From an uncultured Bacilli bacterium (GTDB lineage: Bacteria; Bacillota_I; Bacilli_A; RF39; UBA660): 42,904 bases of DNA. Below are positions 135-25,789 of the stretch, piece by piece. The stretch covers positions 1 to 42,904 of the forward strand of contig CALVVM010000080.1 of the NCBI GenBank assembly GCA_944363855.1. Direction: 5' to 3'. Position 1 is the first letter of the stretch. Each line of letters begins with the position of its first letter. A program made the position numbers and the translations under genes. The notes beneath the pieces are model-generated. The model was not told where the DNA came from and did no database searches. It was given only the letters and a program-made list of their open reading frames with translations.

Positions 135-1676
135 TTATTTCTCTATTTTGAAAATTACTTGATATAGATTTGATAAATCTATTTCTTCTACATCTATTTT
201 AAATCCTAATTGTTCTATCTTACTTGAACATTCTCTTATTGCATTTATTACTTCTTTAAAGTCTACTGCTGATGGCACTGTTCCATATTGTGGCATAACT
301 GGATCATATTGTTTAGAATAATCTGTAACAATAATTGGTTCAGGCATTTTAAATTCTGGAACCACAGGATCTACCGGTGATACTGTTGCTTCTGACGCAT
401 TTAAATTATTATCTCCAAAACTAAATAAATTTTCTGACTGTTGAGTCATTTCTATAGGTTGATTAACTACTGGTGACTCTATGATTGGAGCAGTAACAGG
501 AATTTCTGTCACTACTGGTGTAACTGGTTGGGCCTCTGGCATACTTGGAGCCTTTTCTGGCATTGGTGCTGATACTACATTTCCATTTGCATCAAATTGT
601 ATTCCGCCCATTGTTGGCATCTCTGGTACCACTTGTGTTGGTGCTACTATTGGTGTTTCCATTACTGGTGTAACTGGTTGGGCCTCTGGCATACTTGGAG
701 CCTTTTCTGGCATTGGTACTGATACTACATTTCCATTTGCGTCAAATTGTATTCCACCCATTGTTGGCATCTCTGGTACCACTGGTGTTGGTGCTACTAT
801 TGGTGTTTCCGTTACTGGTGTAACCGGTGTTGTATTAGCTCCACCAAATATATCAAAACTTGGAGCAACTGATTGTTGCACAGGTTCTGGAACTGTATTT
901 ATAACTGGTTGAGGAGATTGAGTATTTGATGGACCAAATATATCAAACCCTGTTGATGGTTGTGGATTTGTCTCAACAGCTGGCATACCAAACATATTAT
1001 TATTCATATCATTTTCCCCTTTTCTTATTATCTTTTGATTATCGTCGTCATCATTATCTTCTACTGATAGATTTTTTATTTTTTCAATTTCTTCATCTGT
1101 TCTTCTAACAGTTAATCTATCACTTATTATTCTATCTAACATTTCATTTTGTTGTTTTGAATTAGTTAATTTTAATAGTGATCTTGCATGTCGCTCAGAT
1201 ATTTTATTTTCAAGAAGTGCTTCTTGGACTTCATCAGAAAGATTTAATAATCTTATCTTATTGGCAACTGCAGATTGACTCTTACCTAATTTAGAAGCTA
1301 GATTTTCTTGAGTTATATATCCCATATCAAGGATTTTTTTATAACTTAATGCTTCTTCTATAGGAGTTAAATTTTTTCTTTGTATATTTTCTATAAGCGC
1401 TATTTCTGCACTATCTTTATCATTTAAGTTTTTAACAATTACTGGCACTGTATCTTTTCCAGCAAGTACACTTGCTTTATATCTTCTTTCTCCAGCAATT
1501 ATTTCGTATTTATCTCCGATAGTTCTTACTACTAAAGGTTGGATAACACCATGTTCTTTTATTGAATCAGATAATTCTAATATTTCTTCTTCATCAAATT
1601 GTATTCTTGGTTGAAATCTATTAGGTAATATTTCATTGATATCTACTTCTATTACCCTAGATGAATTATCATACAT
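135..1676 (-). CDS. noc: Nucleoid occlusion protein Noc (ParB family) with a long Pro/Val/Thr/Glu-rich linker
   Basis: ParB N-domain (PNRFQPR, IAGERR, IENIQR); HTH GKSQSAVANKIRLL..SERHAR has Noc-type rather than Spo0J-type residues; C-terminus resembles the B. subtilis Noc CTD; follows rsmG; NBS-like sites occur in the window. Confidence 0.8.
   Translation of the reverse strand: MYDNSSRVIEVDINEILPNRFQPRIQFDEEEILELSDSIKEHGVIQPLVVRTIGDKYEIIAGERRYKASVLAGKDTVPVIVKNLNDKDSAEIALIENIQRKNLTPIEEALSYKKILDMGYITQENLASKLGKSQSAVANKIRLLNLSDEVQEALLENKISERHARSLLKLTNSKQQNEMLDRIISDRLTVRRTDEEIEKIKNLSVEDNDDDDNQKIIRKGENDMNNNMFGMPAVETNPQPSTGFDIFGPSNTQSPQPVINTVPEPVQQSVAPSFDIFGGANTTPVTPVTETPIVAPTPVVPEMPTMGGIQFDANGNVVSVPMPEKAPSMPEAQPVTPVMETPIVAPTQVVPEMPTMGGIQFDANGNVVSAPMPEKAPSMPEAQPVTPVVTEIPVTAPIIESPVVNQPIEMTQQSENLFSFGDNNLNASEATVSPVDPVVPEFKMPEPIIVTDYSKQYDPVMPQYGTVPSAVDFKEVINAIRECSSKIEQLGFKIDVEEIDLSNLYQVIFKIEK
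511..828. repeat. 150 bp (50 aa) tandem repeat, 2 copies plus a partial third, in the noc linker
   Basis: 511-660 vs 661-810 differ at 5 positions; unit PVTPVTETPIVAPTPVVPEMPTMGGIQFDANGNVVSVPMPEKAPSMPEAQ. Confidence 0.95.
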
Positions 1677-1705
1677 GATATCCCTCCTTTTTATTCTTCA
1701 CTATC

Positions 1706-1772
1706 ATTCTACAACATTTTGGGAAATAATGCAATAAGTTTGGGAAATATTTAAAAATATTTTTGGGAAATA
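1706..1772 (-). promoter_or_regulatory. noc promoter overlapped by three Noc-binding-site half-sites
   Basis: TTGCAT(1734-1729)-17-TAGAAT(1711-1706); TTTGGGAAATA with GGG starting at 1721, 1742, 1765. Confidence 0.55.
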
Positions 1773-1795
1773 ATATAAAATAAAAAGAAAACCTA

Positions 1796-2497
1796 TTATA
1801 AAGGTTTCTTTTTTATCTCACTATATTTTCTGGGAAATAATTTTGAAGTTGATTTTTCTTTTTTTATTTTTATTAAACTTCTATTACTTTCTTCTATTGG
1901 TAATTTAAATTTTACAATATTTCTCAAAGAGCAATCTAATTTTTTTATTGCATTACTATAATCAGGTTCATTTTCTATATTACCTTTCATAGCGATGAAG
2001 TATTTCCCAATTTTTACTAAATTAATACCTAATTCTAAAAGAATGTTTAGAGGCGCTACTGCTCTAGCAGTTACTACATCAAATTTTTCTTTATTAGCAA
2101 CTGCATATTCTTCTATTCTAGAATGAATAGCTGTTATATTTTCTAAACCTAATTCTTTTATAACTATATTTAAAAAATTTATTCTCTTATTTAATGAATC
2201 TATTAAAACAATATTTAAATTAGGATAAAATATTTTTATAACAATACCTGGAAAACCTGCTCCACTACCTAAATCACATAAACTATTTTCTTTATTTAAA
2301 TCTATTATTTTTGATATAGTAAGTGAATCATAGAAATGTTTTAAATATACTTCATCTTTTTCTGTAATACCAGTTAAATTAATCACTTTATTGTATTCAA
2401 TTAGAAGTTCGTAATATTTTTCTAATTGATTTAATTTTTTATCAGTTATTTCTATACCAAGATTTTCTACTTCTTCAATAAATCTATCTTTGTTCAT
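1796..2497 (-). CDS. rsmG: 16S rRNA m7G527 methyltransferase RsmG (GidB)
   Basis: NLTGIT, KHFYDSL, DLGSGAGFPG, VTARAVA motifs; follows mnmG. Confidence 0.97.
   Translation of the reverse strand: MNKDRFIEEVENLGIEITDKKLNQLEKYYELLIEYNKVINLTGITEKDEVYLKHFYDSLTISKIIDLNKENSLCDLGSGAGFPGIVIKIFYPNLNIVLIDSLNKRINFLNIVIKELGLENITAIHSRIEEYAVANKEKFDVVTARAVAPLNILLELGINLVKIGKYFIAMKGNIENEPDYSNAIKKLDCSLRNIVKFKLPIEESNRSLIKIKKEKSTSKLFPRKYSEIKKKPL
1824..1839. promoter_or_regulatory. Noc-binding site (NBS)-like
   Basis: TATTTTCTGGGAAATA, 14/16 match to TATTTCCCGGGAAATA; inside the rsmG 3' end. Confidence 0.5.
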
Positions 2498-4455: not shown

Positions 4456-4749
4456 CTAAATTTTTTCTACTAAATCTGCTACACCTGATGAAAAATCACA
4501 AATAGAATTTTGTATTGAATTGATAAATACTATAATTGCTTCTGAAAAATCATCTTCTGTATAATTACTGTTTTCTAAATCTAAAAGTTCTTTATTAGTT
4601 ATTAATTCATTTTTTATACCTGCAGTTTCACATAAATTATTTGTAAATCCAGATAAAAGTTTTAGTTGGTCATAAATTATTTTTTGTTTTTCTTTCAATG
4701 ATAGATTCTTAAAATAATCCATATATTCTTGAAAATTTTCATTATTCAT
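4456..4749 (-). CDS. Hypothetical acidic protein (97 aa)
   Basis: ORF with AGGTGA RBS overlapping the upstream stop; no recognisable motif; hairpin plus U-tract at ~4434-4457. Confidence 0.7.
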   Translation of the reverse strand: MNNENFQEYMDYFKNLSLKEKQKIIYDQLKLLSGFTNNLCETAGIKNELITNKELLDLENSNYTEDDFSEAIIVFINSIQNSICDFSSGVADLVEKI

Positions 4750-4753
4750 ATTA

Positions 4754-5260
4754 TCACCTAAATAATTTATTTAATTCTTCACTTACTTGTTCCTGTTGTT
4801 GTTCATTTAATTGATTTGCAGCTTTATTCCATAGTTGTTGAAATTTTTTATATTGTCCATTCATTTTTGCAATAGTTTGTTTTAATTTTCCCATCGCAAA
4901 AAATCTGTGTTGAGCATCATATCTAGCAGCAAGTGCTTGAGATTTTGTTTCCATCTCTTTTCCACCAGCTGTATACCCGTACTTTGGTATTTGACTTTCT
5001 CTTATAAATTCTTGTCTTTCTCTTTCTGCTTGAGCATTTTTTGCATAATTTTCTATTTTTCTATCTAATTCTTTTATTTCATCTATAAGTCTATAAGCTT
5101 TACTTGTGTCAGTATATTCATTATAAGAATACGAATCTGATTTATGTTGATCTTGGATTCCAGCAGCCCAAGGAGTTGATCCATGTTTTTTTATTGTTAT
5201 TTTTTCAAGATCATATTCAGCTTGTCTTTTTCTGTTTTTTAAACTTTCTAAACTCTCCAT
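4754..5260 (-). CDS. Hypothetical coiled-coil-rich protein (168 aa)
   Basis: AGGAGG RBS and own promoter; no recognisable motif. Confidence 0.75.
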   Translation of the reverse strand: MESLESLKNRKRQAEYDLEKITIKKHGSTPWAAGIQDQHKSDSYSYNEYTDTSKAYRLIDEIKELDRKIENYAKNAQAERERQEFIRESQIPKYGYTAGGKEMETKSQALAARYDAQHRFFAMGKLKQTIAKMNGQYKKFQQLWNKAANQLNEQQQEQVSEELNKLFR

Positions 5261-9024: not shown

Positions 9025-9040
9025 TATTTCCCAGGAATTA
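9025..9040. promoter_or_regulatory. NBS-like site at the edge of oriC
   Basis: TATTTCCCAGGAATTA, 14/16 match to the NBS consensus. Confidence 0.5.
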
Positions 9041-9394: not shown

Positions 9395-10750
9395 ATGGAT
9401 TTAAATAACATTTGGAATTCATTTCTAGAGAAAATAAAAGTTCAAATATCAGATATTGCTTTTGAAACTTGGTTCTCAGAAACTAAATTAATAAGTTTAA
9501 ATAATAAAACAGCTACTGTTTTAGTTCCTTATCATATACATAAAAAGAATTTGAGTGAAAACTATAGTGATATAATAGAAGAAGTTTTTACTGAAATTAC
9601 TGGTAGTAACTTTAAATTCAATTATGTTATTGAAGAAGAAGTAGAAAATAACTTAACTGAAGATAATCAAATAATAGGTGTTCCTAATAATAATGATTTA
9701 TATGAATCTAATCTAGATCCTAAATATTCATTTGAAAATTTTATGATCGGACCTAGTAATAAGTTTGCAGCTACTAGTGCTTTAGCGGTTGCTGAACAAC
9801 CTGGTAAAATGTATAATCCTTTATTTATATATGGATCAAGTGGGTTAGGGAAAACACACTTAATGCACTCAATAGGTAACTATATAATAAAGAATAGTAA
9901 TAAAAAAGTTTTATATATAACTTGTGATAACTTTGTATCTGATTTTGTTGACATCTGTAGAAAGAATGCAGGTTCTAACAATATGGATGCTATTAAACAA
10001 TTTAAAAATAAATATAGAGATATAGATGTATTAATAATTGATGATATCCACAATTTAGTAGGAGCTACTAGTGCTCAACAAGAGTTTTTCAACACATTTA
10101 ATGAACTATATAATAATGAAAAGCAAATAATTATATCATCAGATAGATCACCAGACGATATTAAAAAATTAGAAGAAAGATTAAAAACAAGATTCAACTG
10201 GGGACTTCAAGTTAATATATTACCTCCAGATTTTAAACTTAGAATGTCTATATTAAATAAGAAAATAGAAAATAATGAACTATCTGGAGTTGTTCCTGAA
10301 GATGTTAAAGAATATATTGCTAGTAATTGTGTAGGGGATGTAAGAAAACTAGAAGGCGCAATAACTCGTGTATTTGCTTACGCAACTATGATGAATGGTT
10401 CAGATATTACGATGGATTTAACAGTTGAAGCTTTAAAAGATTATTTTGTTAAAACTATTGTGTCTAAAAATAAAATGGATCAAGTAGTTCAAATAGTTTG
10501 TGATCATTATAATTTAACTAATGAAGAATTATTAAGTAAAAAAAGAAGTAATGATATAGCAATCCCAAGAATGATAGCTATGTATATATGTCGTGTATAT
10601 CTAGATGAAAATCTTACTAAAATAGGTATTCAATTTGGTGGTAAAAACCATACAACAGTTATGCACGCAGTTGATAAAATTAAAAAAGAAATAATAAAAG
10701 ATGATCATTTGAATGGAGAAATCCAAAAAATGATAAATGAAATTAGATAA
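9395..10750 (+). CDS. dnaA: Chromosomal replication initiator DnaA
   Basis: YNPLFIYGSSGLGKTHL, IIDDI, QQEFFNTFN, RLKTRF, FGGKNHTTVMHA. Confidence 0.99.
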   Translation: MDLNNIWNSFLEKIKVQISDIAFETWFSETKLISLNNKTATVLVPYHIHKKNLSENYSDIIEEVFTEITGSNFKFNYVIEEEVENNLTEDNQIIGVPNNNDLYESNLDPKYSFENFMIGPSNKFAATSALAVAEQPGKMYNPLFIYGSSGLGKTHLMHSIGNYIIKNSNKKVLYITCDNFVSDFVDICRKNAGSNNMDAIKQFKNKYRDIDVLIIDDIHNLVGATSAQQEFFNTFNELYNNEKQIIISSDRSPDDIKKLEERLKTRFNWGLQVNILPPDFKLRMSILNKKIENNELSGVVPEDVKEYIASNCVGDVRKLEGAITRVFAYATMMNGSDITMDLTVEALKDYFVKTIVSKNKMDQVVQIVCDHYNLTNEELLSKKRSNDIAIPRMIAMYICRVYLDENLTKIGIQFGGKNHTTVMHAVDKIKKEIIKDDHLNGEIQKMINEIR

Positions 10751-10882
10751 ATGTTGATTAAATAAAAATATAAACTTTTTATAAACATTAACAAAAGTAT
10801 TGAAAATAAAGGATAAAATAGGATTATACACATTATGAACACTAATAAAAATAATAATATTATTAAAGAAAGAGGGTAAATT
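10751..10882. other. oriC unwinding region between dnaA and dnaN
   Basis: TTATAAACA 10779; adjacent boxes TTATACACA 10824 and TTATGAACA 10833 followed by trio-like CTA ATA AAA ATA ATA ATA TTA TTA, as in the B. subtilis incC layout. Confidence 0.7.
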
Positions 10883-12004
10883 ATGAAATTATCAATAAAA
10901 CAAAAAGTATTAATGGAGCACTTAAACTATGTTATTAAAGGAATATCTAGTAAAAATTTAATACCTATTTTAAACTGTATCAAATTTGAATTAACAAATG
11001 AAGGTTTATATTTATTAAGTACAGATAATGAACTAGCTATTAAATCTTTTATACCAGCTAGTGAAATAGATAATATAGAAGTTCAAGGAGAATTATTAAT
11101 ATCAGGTAAATATATATATGATATAGTAAGAAAATTAAATAATGAAATAATAAATATAGAAGAAATTATAGATTCACAAGTATTAATTACTACTGAATCA
11201 TCTTCATTTAAATTAAATTGTAATGAAGTTAGTGAATTTCCAAGTATAGATTTAGAATTTACAGGTACTCCTGTAGTTATGGATAAAAGAGTATTTAAAA
11301 CTACTATAAATCAAACTATATTTGCTACATCAACACAAGAAAGTAGACCAGTATTAACAGGTATTAATTTTAAAATAAATGAAAATATAATGGAAGTAAC
11401 TGCTACAGATTCATATAGATTATCTAAAAAAAGAATTACTTTAGATCAAAAAGTAGCTGATAATGTAGATATAATTATTCCAAGTAGAAACTTAAGTGAA
11501 ATAATTAAATTAATGAGTGATGATGAAGAACAAACAGAATTACATATTTTCTCAAATAAAGTAATATTTAAAATAGGTAATTTAATAGTAATGACTAGAT
11601 TAATAAATGGTAATTATCCAGATACAAACAAATTAATTCCAAAAAATTTTGAATTAAAAATAAAAGTAAATCTTGATAATTTCTATAATGCTATAGATAG
11701 AGCTTCTTTATTAACAAATGCAGAAGAAAAAAATATTATTAAATTAGAAACTAAAAAAGATATTATGATTATTTCATCTAATATTCCAGAAATCGGTAAT
11801 GTAGAAGAAAAAATAAAAATAGAAAAGAGTGTAGATTCAGATATTAAAATATCTTTTAGTTCAAAATATATGATGGATGCTATTAAAACATTTGATAGTG
11901 AAGAAATTGAATTATCATTTAATGGAGAAATTAAACCAATTATTATTAACTATGTGGATAACGATGATTTAACACAATTAATATTACCAATAAGAACATA
12001 TTAA
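10883..12004 (+). CDS. dnaN: DNA polymerase III beta clamp
   Basis: SRPVLTG, ATDSYRL, RLINGNYPD, LILPIRTY. Confidence 0.98.
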   Translation: MKLSIKQKVLMEHLNYVIKGISSKNLIPILNCIKFELTNEGLYLLSTDNELAIKSFIPASEIDNIEVQGELLISGKYIYDIVRKLNNEIINIEEIIDSQVLITTESSSFKLNCNEVSEFPSIDLEFTGTPVVMDKRVFKTTINQTIFATSTQESRPVLTGINFKINENIMEVTATDSYRLSKKRITLDQKVADNVDIIIPSRNLSEIIKLMSDDEEQTELHIFSNKVIFKIGNLIVMTRLINGNYPDTNKLIPKNFELKIKVNLDNFYNAIDRASLLTNAEEKNIIKLETKKDIMIISSNIPEIGNVEEKIKIEKSVDSDIKISFSSKYMMDAIKTFDSEEIELSFNGEIKPIIINYVDNDDLTQLILPIRTY

Positions 12005-18311: not shown

Positions 18312-18315
18312 TATT

Positions 18316-18348
18316 AAAGGAATGTTTCACGTGAAACATTCCTTTTTT
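18316..18348 (+). terminator. gyrA terminator built on a parS palindrome
   Basis: AAAGGAATGTTTCACGTGAAACATTCCTTT perfect 30 bp palindrome continuing into a T-run, 4 nt after the stop. Confidence 0.7.
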
Positions 18349-18511
18349 ATATTTTATTTAATAAATAAAAAAAATTATAACTATCAATGTTTCACGTGAA
18401 ACATTGATATAAACTAAATAAATTGTTTTAAAATATATTAAATTTATATGTTTCACGTGAAACATATAAATAAAGTATTGATATTTTTTTTATTTATAAT
18501 ATATTATTAAT

Positions 18512-18581
18512 GCACAACATTTATATTCAAATCAGGTCAGAGTTGGAAGACAGCAGCCTTAAGAATCTCTAAATGTGTGTG
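18512..18581 (+). ncRNA. ffs: Small SRP (4.5S) RNA, copy 1
   Basis: Domain IV GG-UCAGA-GUU-GGAA-GAC-AGCAG-CC; outer stem GCACAACAUUUA/UAAAUGUGUGUG; TTGATA upstream and a T-run downstream; near tadA-dnaX like B. subtilis scr. Confidence 0.85.
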
Positions 18582-18675
18582 TTTTTTTTTGTTTTTGTAA
18601 TAAAACACTAATGTTTCACGTGAAACATATAAATAAAGTATTGATATTTTTTTTTATTTATAATATATTATTAAT

Positions 18676-18746
18676 GCACAACATTTATATTTGAATCAGG
18701 TCAGAGTTGGAAGACAGCAGCCTTAAGAATCTCTAAATGTGTGTGC
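18676..18746 (+). ncRNA. ffs: Small SRP (4.5S) RNA, copy 2
   Basis: Identical domain IV; closing stem GCACA/UGUGC fully paired. Confidence 0.85.
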
Positions 18747-18966
18747 TTTTTTTTATTTTTTGTAATAAAACACTAATGTTTCACGTGAAACATTAGTGAA
18801 AAAACAACTAAATATAATACAAAAAAACAAAAATATTAAAATTTATATAATTTTATAATATAATATAGATAGAAAATATCAATGTTTCACGTGAAACATT
18901 GATGAAATAAACACTAAAAAATATAATTATTAATAAATAAATTAAAATAATTTTATTTAAATAAAT

Positions 18967-18982
18967 TATTTCCTGGGAAATA
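18967..18982. promoter_or_regulatory. Noc-binding site
   Basis: TATTTCCTGGGAAATA, 15/16 match to the NBS consensus, 7 bp from parS7. Confidence 0.7.
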
Positions 18983-19017
18983 AAAAATATGTTTCACGTG
19001 AAACATTGGAGGTTAAA

Positions 19018-24940: not shown

Positions 24941-25789
24941 ATGTCACAAAAAAGTTATGATAATAGTCCAACTTTATATCTTATTCCAACTCCAATAGGA
25001 AATATGGAAGATATAACAATAAGAGCGATTAATACATTAAAAATGGTTGATGTAGTTTTCTGTGAAGATACTAGAGTAACTGGACAATTATTAAAATATT
25101 TAGATATAAGTAAAAAGTTAATATCTAGTCATAATTATAACGAATCAGGTAATAAAGAAAAGTTGTTAGAGTATTTAAGTAGTGGAAGTAATGTAGGGTT
25201 AGTTAGTGATAGAGGAACACCTATAATAAGTGATCCAGGATATGAACTTGCTAAAGTAGCTATAGAAGAAGGTTATAATGTGGTAAGTTTACCAGGAGCT
25301 ACTGCTTTAATACCAGCTCTAACTTCATCAGGTATTAGTCCTATGCCATTTTACTATTATGGATTTTTGAATAGTAAAGATAGTGCTAGAAGGAAAGAGT
25401 TAGAATTTTTAAAAAATATAGATGCTACACTAATACTTTATGAAGCTCCACATCGCATAAATAAAACATTAAAAGATTTGGAAAATATTTTGGGAAATAA
25501 TCGTAAAATATGTATTTCCCGGGAAATAACTAAAAAGTATGAAGAAATATATAGGGGAACAATAGGTGAACTAATAGAGCAAAAAAACGAATATAAAGGA
25601 GAACTTGTAGTAGTAGTAGAAGGTAATAAGGAAACTACTGAATACAAAAATTTAACAGTTGAAGAACATGTTAAACTATATATAGAAGATGGTAAAAGTT
25701 CAATGGATGCTATTAAGATAGTTGCTAAAGAACGTGGTATGAAAAAAAGTGAAGTATACGATATTTACCACAATATAGAAAAGAAGTGA
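24941..25789 (+). CDS. rsmI: 16S rRNA C1402 2'-O-methyltransferase RsmI
   Basis: PTPIGNMEDIT.RA, EDTR, SDPG, YEAPHR, REITK. Confidence 0.96.
   Translation: MSQKSYDNSPTLYLIPTPIGNMEDITIRAINTLKMVDVVFCEDTRVTGQLLKYLDISKKLISSHNYNESGNKEKLLEYLSSGSNVGLVSDRGTPIISDPGYELAKVAIEEGYNVVSLPGATALIPALTSSGISPMPFYYYGFLNSKDSARRKELEFLKNIDATLILYEAPHRINKTLKDLENILGNNRKICISREITKKYEEIYRGTIGELIEQKNEYKGELVVVVEGNKETTEYKNLTVEEHVKLYIEDGKSSMDAIKIVAKERGMKKSEVYDIYHNIEKK
25513..25528. promoter_or_regulatory. Perfect Noc-binding site inside rsmI
   Basis: TATTTCCCGGGAAATA, 16/16. Confidence 0.8.

Follow-up and report, generated by a model that had tools for sequence, protein, structure and literature searches.

How does a nucleoid occlusion protein of the Noc type act when it has no segment to hold it at the membrane? 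This question is raised by a gene on contig CALVVM010000080.1 of an uncultured Bacilli bacterium (assembly GCA_944363855.1; GTDB lineage Bacteria; Bacillota_I; Bacilli_A; RF39; UBA660), whose full 42,904 nucleotides are referred to below as the window. Its 513-aa product is assigned here, with high confidence, to the Noc type of the ParB family. Published work, cited here and below from the available parts of the texts, presents the N-terminal helix as the conserved, essential, and CTP-switch-controlled part of Noc (CTP, cytidine triphosphate). The Noc N-terminus was extremely conserved in all homologues examined and a 10-residue deletion abolished function (Adams 2015, PMC4331003), and it is the CTP switch that releases the helix (Jalal 2021, PMC8429893). 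The whole family of gut Bacilli to which the gene belongs (61 genera sampled) keeps Noc, the CTP motifs, and Noc binding sites (NBS) but is without the helix, while the linker of the clamp is expanded up to twenty-fold, acidic, disordered, and equipped with conserved short motifs. An earlier sequence-only reading of the window had noticed the missing helix and the long linker, and had proposed that internal F-x-x-F-G motifs reach the membrane or protein partners or, alternatively, that the linker forms condensates in a sticker-and-spacer manner.

The absence of the helix is genuine. The reading frame of noc is uninterrupted, it opens with an ATG, and the product begins MYDNSSRVIEV, with the ParB N-terminal domain following 7 residues on, much as the sequence-only reading had described, and stop codons lying upstream. 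An N-terminal extension is impossible, whether translated with table 11 or with TGA read as tryptophan, because TGA and then TAG close the frame, and an alternative start or genetic code for noc was ruled out by the same two codons; the open frame around the gene comprises 520 codons, consistent with these stops. Residue 8 of the query aligns to residue 28 of the solved Geobacillus Noc 7nfu, and in Bacillus subtilis Noc 7ol9 the counterpart of query residue 4 is residue 26; hence about 22–26 N-terminal residues, including the membrane-targeting sequence, are absent. Start position, upstream stops, and alignment to solved Noc structures all agree on this. An engineered NΔ26 variant of Geobacillus Noc has approximately the same start (query residue 10 corresponds to residue 6 of 7ng0). 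According to the available text of PMC4331003 and PMC8429893, the NocNΔ10 and NΔ26 forms keep DNA and CTP binding and lose membrane binding and function. The truncated form, engineered in laboratory Noc, is here natural, conserved across a family, and combined with a new linker.

Such an architecture could in principle arise if the start were miscalled, the frame shifted, or the insert chimeric, the more so as the assembly is fragmented (86 contigs) and noc lies 134 bp from a contig end. However, the start is delimited by a strong ribosome-binding site together with two in-frame stops ahead of it, the frame runs through without interruption, and equal architecture is found in 120 database proteins of many sources and in 96 independent genomes, also on long contigs and complete chromosomes of relatives. 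An artefact of assembly or gene calling is therefore extremely improbable.

The assignment to Noc follows from several lines that agree with each other, namely synteny, the ranking of solved structures, specificity residues, and phylogeny, and in this respect the sequence-only reading has held. The NCBIfam model of Noc (TIGR04285) matched with 291.2 bits in two stretches split by the linker, and the generic ParB model with 183.3 bits. Against the assignment speaks that the former score lies under the curated cut-off of 315. Among PDB entries, Geobacillus Noc ranked first (7ng0/7nfu, 206 bits), followed by B. subtilis Noc (7ol9, 180) and Spo0J (6sdk, 167). The NBS-specificity residues named by Jalal 2020 (PMC7383237) are Q173, K179, K184, and R201, with one lysine at 179 or 184 being sufficient; the 513-aa protein has Q134, K140, N145, and R162 at these places, three of the four being the Noc residue. 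K140 and R162 are invariant and Q134 nearly so in the 125 rows of the family alignment. A maximum likelihood tree of 65 core regions unites the 25 long-linker proteins in a single clade (99/98). They did not group with Spo0J, as 11 Spo0J proteins of the same genomes constitute a separate clade (100/100). The long-linker clade lies in a Noc polytomy, the Noc backbone of this tree being without resolution.

Alternatively, the target might be parS, with the protein serving as a further partition protein of the Spo0J/ParB kind. The same contig has seven perfect parS sites at a distance of 17 kb, the generic ParB model matches too, and Spo0J/ParB proteins (6sdk, 1vz0, 4umk; 165–167 bits) share the fold and belong to the same family of CTP clamps. 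Nevertheless, position 173 is Q and not R and position 201 is R and not G, as judged by the residues given in the available literature; the N-terminal LG(R/K)GL peptide that contacts ParA is missing from the 513-aa Noc; the Spo0J clade stands apart with full support; and Noc structures outrank those of Spo0J. The genome encodes a separate soj-spo0J pair on another contig (C51), and the Spo0J of this pair carries both the LGRGL peptide and the residues R...G. A partition role of this kind is thus very hard to credit, and both it and the artefact are excluded for practical purposes. Compared with Noc of B. subtilis and Geobacillus thermoleovorans (TIGR04285; 7ol9, 7nfu, 7ng0, 6y93), the 513-aa protein shares the N-terminal domain with its GERR and ENxQR boxes, the Q/K/R helix-turn-helix, the C-terminal domain, the position after an rsmG-like gene, and the NBS palindrome ATTTCCCGGGAAAT in the genome; it differs in the absence of the N-terminal amphipathic helix and in a linker of 250 aa versus roughly 20–40 in canonical Noc. 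KorB of plasmid RK2 (8qa8), a repressor and CTP clamp of the ParB family, is a distant relative (55 bits).

The folded parts are well preserved. The CTP-binding boxes GERR (residues 62–65) and ENIQR (96–100) are in place, and G62, E63, R64, R65, E96, N97, and R100 are invariant in the family alignment. AlphaFold2 supplied with this alignment gave a predicted local distance difference test (pLDDT) score above 90 for residues 1–207 and ~470–513. The last 58 residues resemble the C-terminal domain of Noc, the final motif being like the canonical ...Y-x-V-x-I-K-I-x-K. A homodimer model of residues 430–513 scored 0.43 (best control 0.02) under a measure whose mark is attained for solved pairs in 20 of 30 cases and for single chains in 1 of 23, with at least 92% contact agreement between runs, partner pLDDT of at least 61, and an interface made of helix 472–492 and strand 503–513; this score may only reflect likeness, because ParB C-terminal dimers have already been solved. 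In sum, the CTP-binding motifs are intact, the recognition helix is of the NBS type, and the C-terminal domain is a dimerising one.

The anchor-less, long-linker form characterises a whole lineage. Two sets of relatives were compared, the 120 best database homologues (the close set) and 96 proteins parsed from 99 fetched loci of relatives (the order-level set; three loci gave no protein under the filter). The close homologues are 313–683 aa long, and 119 of the 120 start 16–20 residues ahead of the P-x-R-x-QPR box, the remaining one being a truncated entry. They come from metagenomes, the few named ones as 'MAG: Bacilli bacterium' (MAG, metagenome-assembled genome). All 96 order-level proteins have at most ~27 residues before the same box, Q/K/R in the recognition helix, and 162–572 residues after ERHAR, where canonical relatives have ~100. 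Their linkers measure 59–469 residues (median 262) and are without exception net negative (−6 to −75, median −24). A match was obtained in each of the 121 genomes of the order that were searched, the long proteins listed corresponding to frames of 323–764 codons, and the same search also turned up Spo0J of ~295 aa. A search with a canonical Noc as query (150 representatives at 50% identity, 139 parsed) returned 65 proteins with a canonical tail, many of them with N-terminal peptides such as MKKPFSKLFGLKDKE or ...SISRFFGLGEKN, and 74 with a long tail, nearly all of the latter with a short N-terminus.

The 513-aa protein is the Noc orthologue of a family of uncultured gut Bacilli with small genomes (0.6–1.6 Mb). 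The species representatives that carry the gene are MAGs of uncultured gut Bacilli from sheep, goat, rabbit, and other hosts, and Firmicutes bacterium CAG:822 and Candidatus Coprosoma are among the gene-bearing genomes. Our literature searches found no description of an anchor-less long-linker Noc. Outside the long-linker family, the Noc-like frames in 200 scored genomes of the class have 252–310 codons, one family excepted. In that family (L137/G193, L138/G169, L139/G216) an acidic extension lies behind the C-terminal domain and not in the linker; one of its proteins, 675 aa long, keeps the N-terminal MALFNRKDK and ends GFWNLFK.

The linker is, as had been claimed from the sequence, a proline-rich segment of about 250 aa, and it is disordered. 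Residues 206–455 comprise 41 Pro, 32 Asp and Glu, 7 Lys and Arg, and 11 aromatic residues, with a net charge of −25, and pLDDT is mostly below 50 over residues 210–465. The sole small rises (65 and 72) coincide with two GIQFDANGNV turns. The DNA that encodes the linker is richer in G+C than its surroundings (0.40–0.43 versus 0.21–0.29). All the aromatic motifs reported by the sequence-only reading, namely MFG, two FDIFG, two GIQFD, and LFSFG, were found just as listed. The GIQFD motifs, at residues 308 and 358, belong to a 150-bp duplication that encodes two 50-aa units, each with MGGIQFDANGNVV. Two homologues (P0002, P0007) are each one 50-aa unit shorter than two others (P0001, P0004), which indicates that the copy number of the repeat varies between close strains.

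Conservation of the motifs depends on the distance over which it is viewed. FD[IVLM]F occurs in 115 of the 120 close homologues and FD[IVLM]FG in 100; with slightly different linker bounds the former count is 116, versus a mean of 0.5 in composition-matched shuffles, a control that ignores the relatedness of the proteins. The first FD[IVLM]F stands at a near-fixed distance from the DNA-binding domain, and the spacers around it diverge. Near-invariant short motifs in diverging linkers bear the signature of binding motifs and not of a pure spacer. Less constant are N-x-FG-[MIL], LF[ST]FG, and QFD (41, 53, and 63 of 120, respectively). A further segment, EFKMPEPIIVTDYSKQYDPVMP, precedes the C-terminal domain, and its KQYDP[IV] is present in 119 of 120 close homologues and in only ~12 of the 96 order-level proteins. 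Its role as part of the dimer interface was considered and rejected, the segment being absent from the confident contacts and specific to the subclade.

Other genera have linker motifs of their own. A linker helix like MDIEKIMREAKDI occurs in 41 of 96 order-level proteins (0 in shuffles), a [KR]F[FI]N-type motif (KFFNFLEDE, e.g., PNKFFNFLEDE) in 50 (3.4 in shuffles), and F-D-x-[IM]-F (e.g., TFDSMFNQH) in 41 (2.3 in shuffles), the shuffles again taking no account of relatedness. By position, NNNMFGMP and FDIFG of the 513-aa protein appear to match the [KR]F[FI]N-type and F-D-x-[IM]-F motifs, respectively. In the AlphaFold2 model of a relative with a short linker (L102), the only helices of the linker, short and of low confidence, at ~216–222 and ~251–254 (pLDDT ~55–70) roughly coincide with the two conserved linker motifs of that protein. 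By eye, the linker motifs also resemble canonical N-terminal peptides of the same class (MGLFDFLGTKN, (V/M)FNIFSRDD, MASLFNIL). The idea of a relocated anchor nevertheless gained no support, as this likeness failed in a test with a hidden Markov model (HMM) of canonical anchors, the scores being no better than in shuffles.

A mechanism in which the linker takes over from the helix can be outlined as follows. NBS loading and a CTP-dependent sliding clamp would operate by analogy with B. subtilis Noc, and the clamps would load at the few origin-proximal NBS sites. Each clamp dimer would carry two long flexible arms on which the two FDIFG, the two GIQFD of the copy-variable repeat, and LFSFG would provide multivalent, individually weak contacts. 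The target of these contacts could be the membrane itself or else a division or segregation protein close to it, bound through a hydrophobic groove, and the motifs would thereby replace the lost N-terminal anchor. That a CTP clamp loaded near oriC is tethered by linker motifs to a partner or to the membrane appears to us an evenly balanced proposition. The lack of basic flanks around the motifs of the 513-aa protein makes lipid a somewhat less likely target than a protein partner. The more specific version, in which the effector end has moved, the CTP-gated helix being lost and its role taken by degenerate Phe motifs along the acidic linker so that a handful of Noc clamps tether oriC to the envelope, or else to a protein that works in division or replication, is tentative and, in our judgement, rather doubtful. 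If true, it would mean that nucleoid occlusion or origin anchoring is achieved by a multivalent disordered tether and not by an amphipathic helix.

Several observations count against such a tether. Conserved residues are the ground for assuming that the protein would bind CTP and NBS and form a clamp. FD[IVLM]F is present in only 10 of the 96 order-level proteins, confined to the close subclade, and therefore cannot be the universal effector motif of the family; the F-D-I-F-G motif of the sequence-only reading is conserved among close relatives and has no family-wide standing. An HMM of nine canonical N-terminal anchors reached at most 3.9 bits in 97 linkers (shuffled linkers reach 5 bits 0.1 times per 97) and gave no match whatever in the 513-aa protein. 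AlphaFold2 left the FDIFG motifs under a pLDDT of 50 and predicted for them neither a helix nor docking on the folded domains. The linker motifs are without flanking Lys or Arg and sit in a chain of charge −25, which is unfavourable for contact with anionic membranes; hydrophobic moments were uninformative, since canonical N-terminal peptides were no higher than the internal motifs. The membrane contact proposed earlier gained no support from the flanks, the structure prediction, or the anchor model. Finally, some canonical-length Noc-like proteins of the class are also without an N-terminal anchor, and therefore loss of the anchor alone demands no replacement.

In the main rival scheme, clamp size, sliding, or non-specific DNA binding would be tuned by a linker that evolves fast and acts as an acidic entropic spacer or as a tail mimicking DNA; its motifs would have no partner, and Noc would serve as an origin organiser and/or autorepressor without membrane contact. 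All 96 linkers are acidic, with hugely variable length (59–469) and sequence, units are gained or lost between near-identical strains, no linker motif is universal in the family, AlphaFold2 predicts disorder, and the anchor profile gave a null result. The small number of NBS sites and their location, near oriC and in the noc promoter region, fit a local organiser or repressor like KorB as described in the available text of PMC11790492, and other Noc-like proteins of the class have neither anchor nor long linker. What this scheme does not readily explain is the recurrence of FD[IVLM]F in 115 of 120 close homologues and of the motifs of other genera in 41–50 of 96 linkers, where shuffles give at most 3.4. 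We consider it possible, if on the unlikely side. Should the motifs be effector sites, the family would possess a second route coupling DNA to the envelope or divisome, and the ParB clamp would accommodate a lumen-forming linker of very large size and could make use of it; should they not be, Noc would have a membrane-independent job at the origin.

The third option, that Phe motifs are stickers which drive phase separation of Noc at NBS and that the condensate itself brings about nucleoid occlusion, was the other proposal of the sequence-only reading. The 11 aromatic residues spread over a Pro-rich chain of 250 aa and the variable number of repeats would suit it, and B. subtilis Noc phase-separates in vitro under CTP control according to the available text of PMC9606368. 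However, homotypic association is opposed by the net charge of the linker, −25 with hardly any basic residue, and by the negative charge of the linker in all 96 proteins, and the match to Pfam Nucleoporin_FG was not significant (E = 0.7, 11.2 bits versus a cut-off of 32.2). Two points make this reading weak, and we regard it as improbable: the chain is acidic throughout, and canonical Noc, as reported in the same source, already condenses without such a linker. A search of the ESM Atlas with the linker returned no usable match.

As for the cellular context, the genome encodes FtsZ, whose C-terminal peptide is normal, FtsA, which has a Phe-rich C-terminal peptide, SepF, and SMC, as well as a DivIVA-like open reading frame (ORF) named by eye; in this 92%-complete genome no MinD was found above the cut-off, only ParA-type matches. 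Beta-clamp, FtsA, FtsZ, SepF, and DivIVA were weighed as motif partners on sequence grounds and none was indicated. The C-terminus of FtsA (...GKIFGFFFSE) and the N-terminus of SepF (MGFIKNLFDK) of the same genome are membrane-targeting peptides, short and Phe-rich, and the KFFNFLEDE-type motif is similar to them by eye. FDIFG, GIQFD, and LFSFG differ from these peptides in lacking both a basic residue and a predicted helix, and the likeness to an anchor profile lacked statistical support. RicO of Staphylococcus aureus, an origin-to-membrane anchor according to the available text of its preprint (bioRxiv 10.64898/2026.03.06.710092), offers a possible functional analogy only, as a DNA-binding protein that ties the origin region to the membrane; we take it to be a protein unrelated to Noc. 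The coordinates of the features are collected in Table 1.

Table 1. Features of the noc locus and NBS-like sites in the window (positions in the 42,904-nt stretch; residues refer to the 513-aa protein).
Feature	Position	Strand	Details
noc-type gene	135..1676	(-)	513 codons + stop; ORF list, translation
Ribosome-binding site AAAGGAGG	1683-1690	(-)	6 nt upstream of noc ATG; read from sequence
In-frame stops TGA and TAG	1698-1700 and 1701-1703	(-)	8 and 9 codons upstream of noc ATG
ParB N-terminal (CTP-binding) domain	1380..1655	(-)	residues 8-99; Pfam PF02195, E = 3e-33
ParB helix-turn-helix domain (HTH_ParB)	1074..1376	(-)	residues 101-201; Pfam PF17762, E = 1.1e-32
Disordered acidic linker	312..1061	(-)	residues 206-455, 250 aa
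MFG motif in NNNMFGMP	987..995	(-)	residues 228-230
FDIFG motif 1	933..947	(-)	residues 244-248
FDIFG motif 2	843..857	(-)	residues 274-278
150-bp tandem duplication	513..828		2.1 copies, 96% matches; Tandem Repeats Finder
LFSFG motif	414..428	(-)	residues 417-421
Subclade-conserved segment EFKMPEPIIVTDYSKQYDPVMP	291..356	(-)	residues 441-462, directly before the C-terminal domain
C-terminal dimerisation domain	138..311	(-)	residues 456-513; helix 473-489, strands 494-500, 505-511
Three 23-bp direct repeats, each with half-site TATTTCCCA	1716..1783		between rsmG-like gene and noc; Tandem Repeats Finder
NBS-like site ATTTTCTGGGAAAT, 2 mismatches	1825..1838		inside 3' end of rsmG-like gene, ~150 bp upstream of noc
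NBS-like site, 2 mismatches	9026..9039		gap between rnpA-like and dnaA-like genes (presumed oriC region)
NBS ATTTCCTGGGAAAT, 1 mismatch	18968..18981		edge of parS cluster
NBS ATTTCCCGGGAAAT, perfect	25514..25527		only perfect one in the assembly

The distribution of binding sites would place the protein at the origin. noc is preceded by rsmG-, mnmG-, and mnmE-like genes, and beyond these lie jag-, yidC-, and rnpA-like genes and then dnaA, dnaN, recF, gyrB, and gyrA, all named by eye from the translations; since the run of genes reaches dnaA, dnaN, recF, gyrB, and gyrA, the window is the origin region by its gene content. Two small ORFs of 97 and 168 aa with no obvious identity (window 4456-5260) split the mnmG-like from the mnmE-like gene and break the usual mnmE-mnmG adjacency. 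By our own estimate, ~0.003 perfect and ~0.15 one-mismatch NBS are expected in the assembly, and one of each was observed. The window holds four NBS-like sites with up to two mismatches versus 0.06 in shuffles, and of the five in the assembly four are on this 43-kb contig. For the half-site TATTTCCCA, 10 occurrences were counted in the window, where 0.76 are expected, and 16 genome-wide, the contig representing 3.9% of bases. ATTTCCC is at expectation genome-wide (93 versus 86). A multi-copy alternative to the NBS was sought through a genome-wide count of palindromes of 10–16 bp and rejected, only parS being enriched. With two good sites, both near oriC, the genome differs from that of B. subtilis, where NBS are far more numerous and scattered round the chromosome. 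The 513-aa Noc very probably binds NBS, and does so at a few origin-proximal places.

A small number of sites is also typical of the family. One genome per genus was inspected, and NBS with up to one mismatch were present in 56 of 61 (median 2, range 0–23, often clustered), a reversed-pattern control giving 0–1. In one genus (G320: C1 89140-90102, C53, C68) there are 23 NBS, and 13 of these recur every ~79 bp in an array. Within 300 bp upstream of noc, an NBS with up to two mismatches was found in 25 of 73 relatives and was perfect in 6 of the 25; for this count 23 of the 96 loci had been dropped by hand (18 were members of a densely sampled CAG:822-like group, and the other 5 had short flanks or were near-duplicates).

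Sites next to noc itself hint at control of its own expression. The half-sites in the three 23-bp repeats start at 1720, 1741, and 1764, and the one proximal to noc falls between a possible −35 (TTGCAT, 1729-1734) and a possible −10 (TAGAAT, 1706-1711); this pair was not listed in a consensus promoter scan. The presence of half-sites in the noc promoter region suggests autoregulation, and noc is probably autoregulated. Sites at promoters, here that of noc, would also point to a regulatory role like that of KorB. Downstream of the gene, a strong promoter-like site on the minus strand (TTTACA, 17 nt, TG-TATAAT; 68 to 40) follows an 11-bp repeat (72-97) with ATTTCCCAC.

The parS sites of the window form a cluster of their own. 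Seven perfect 16-bp sites TGTTTCACGTGAAACA are grouped within ~680 bp in one intergenic region (window 18312-19005), which the gyrA-like gene and the tadA-like gene flank. The assembly has no other parS that is perfect or nearly so, and the one-mismatch NBS at 18968 adjoins the last of them. Two tandem genes of a small signal recognition particle (SRP) RNA lie in the cluster (18506-18591 and 18670-18755; Rfam RF00169, 54.1 and 57.5 bits), each copy inside a repeated unit flanked by parS sites.

As for the position of the partition genes, a new ORF runs from position 6 off the contig, its first residues being M-E, unlike those of Soj on C51; because of this difference soj-spo0J may not follow noc here. 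Among the relatives, Spo0J is ~2 kb from noc in several and far away in others. A third ParA/ParB pair of the plasmid or mobile-element type (273 and 276 aa) is present on a further contig (C49, ~9770-11380; L003 633-2235), where it adjoins an ORF for an XRE-like regulator and a signal-peptidase-like ORF.

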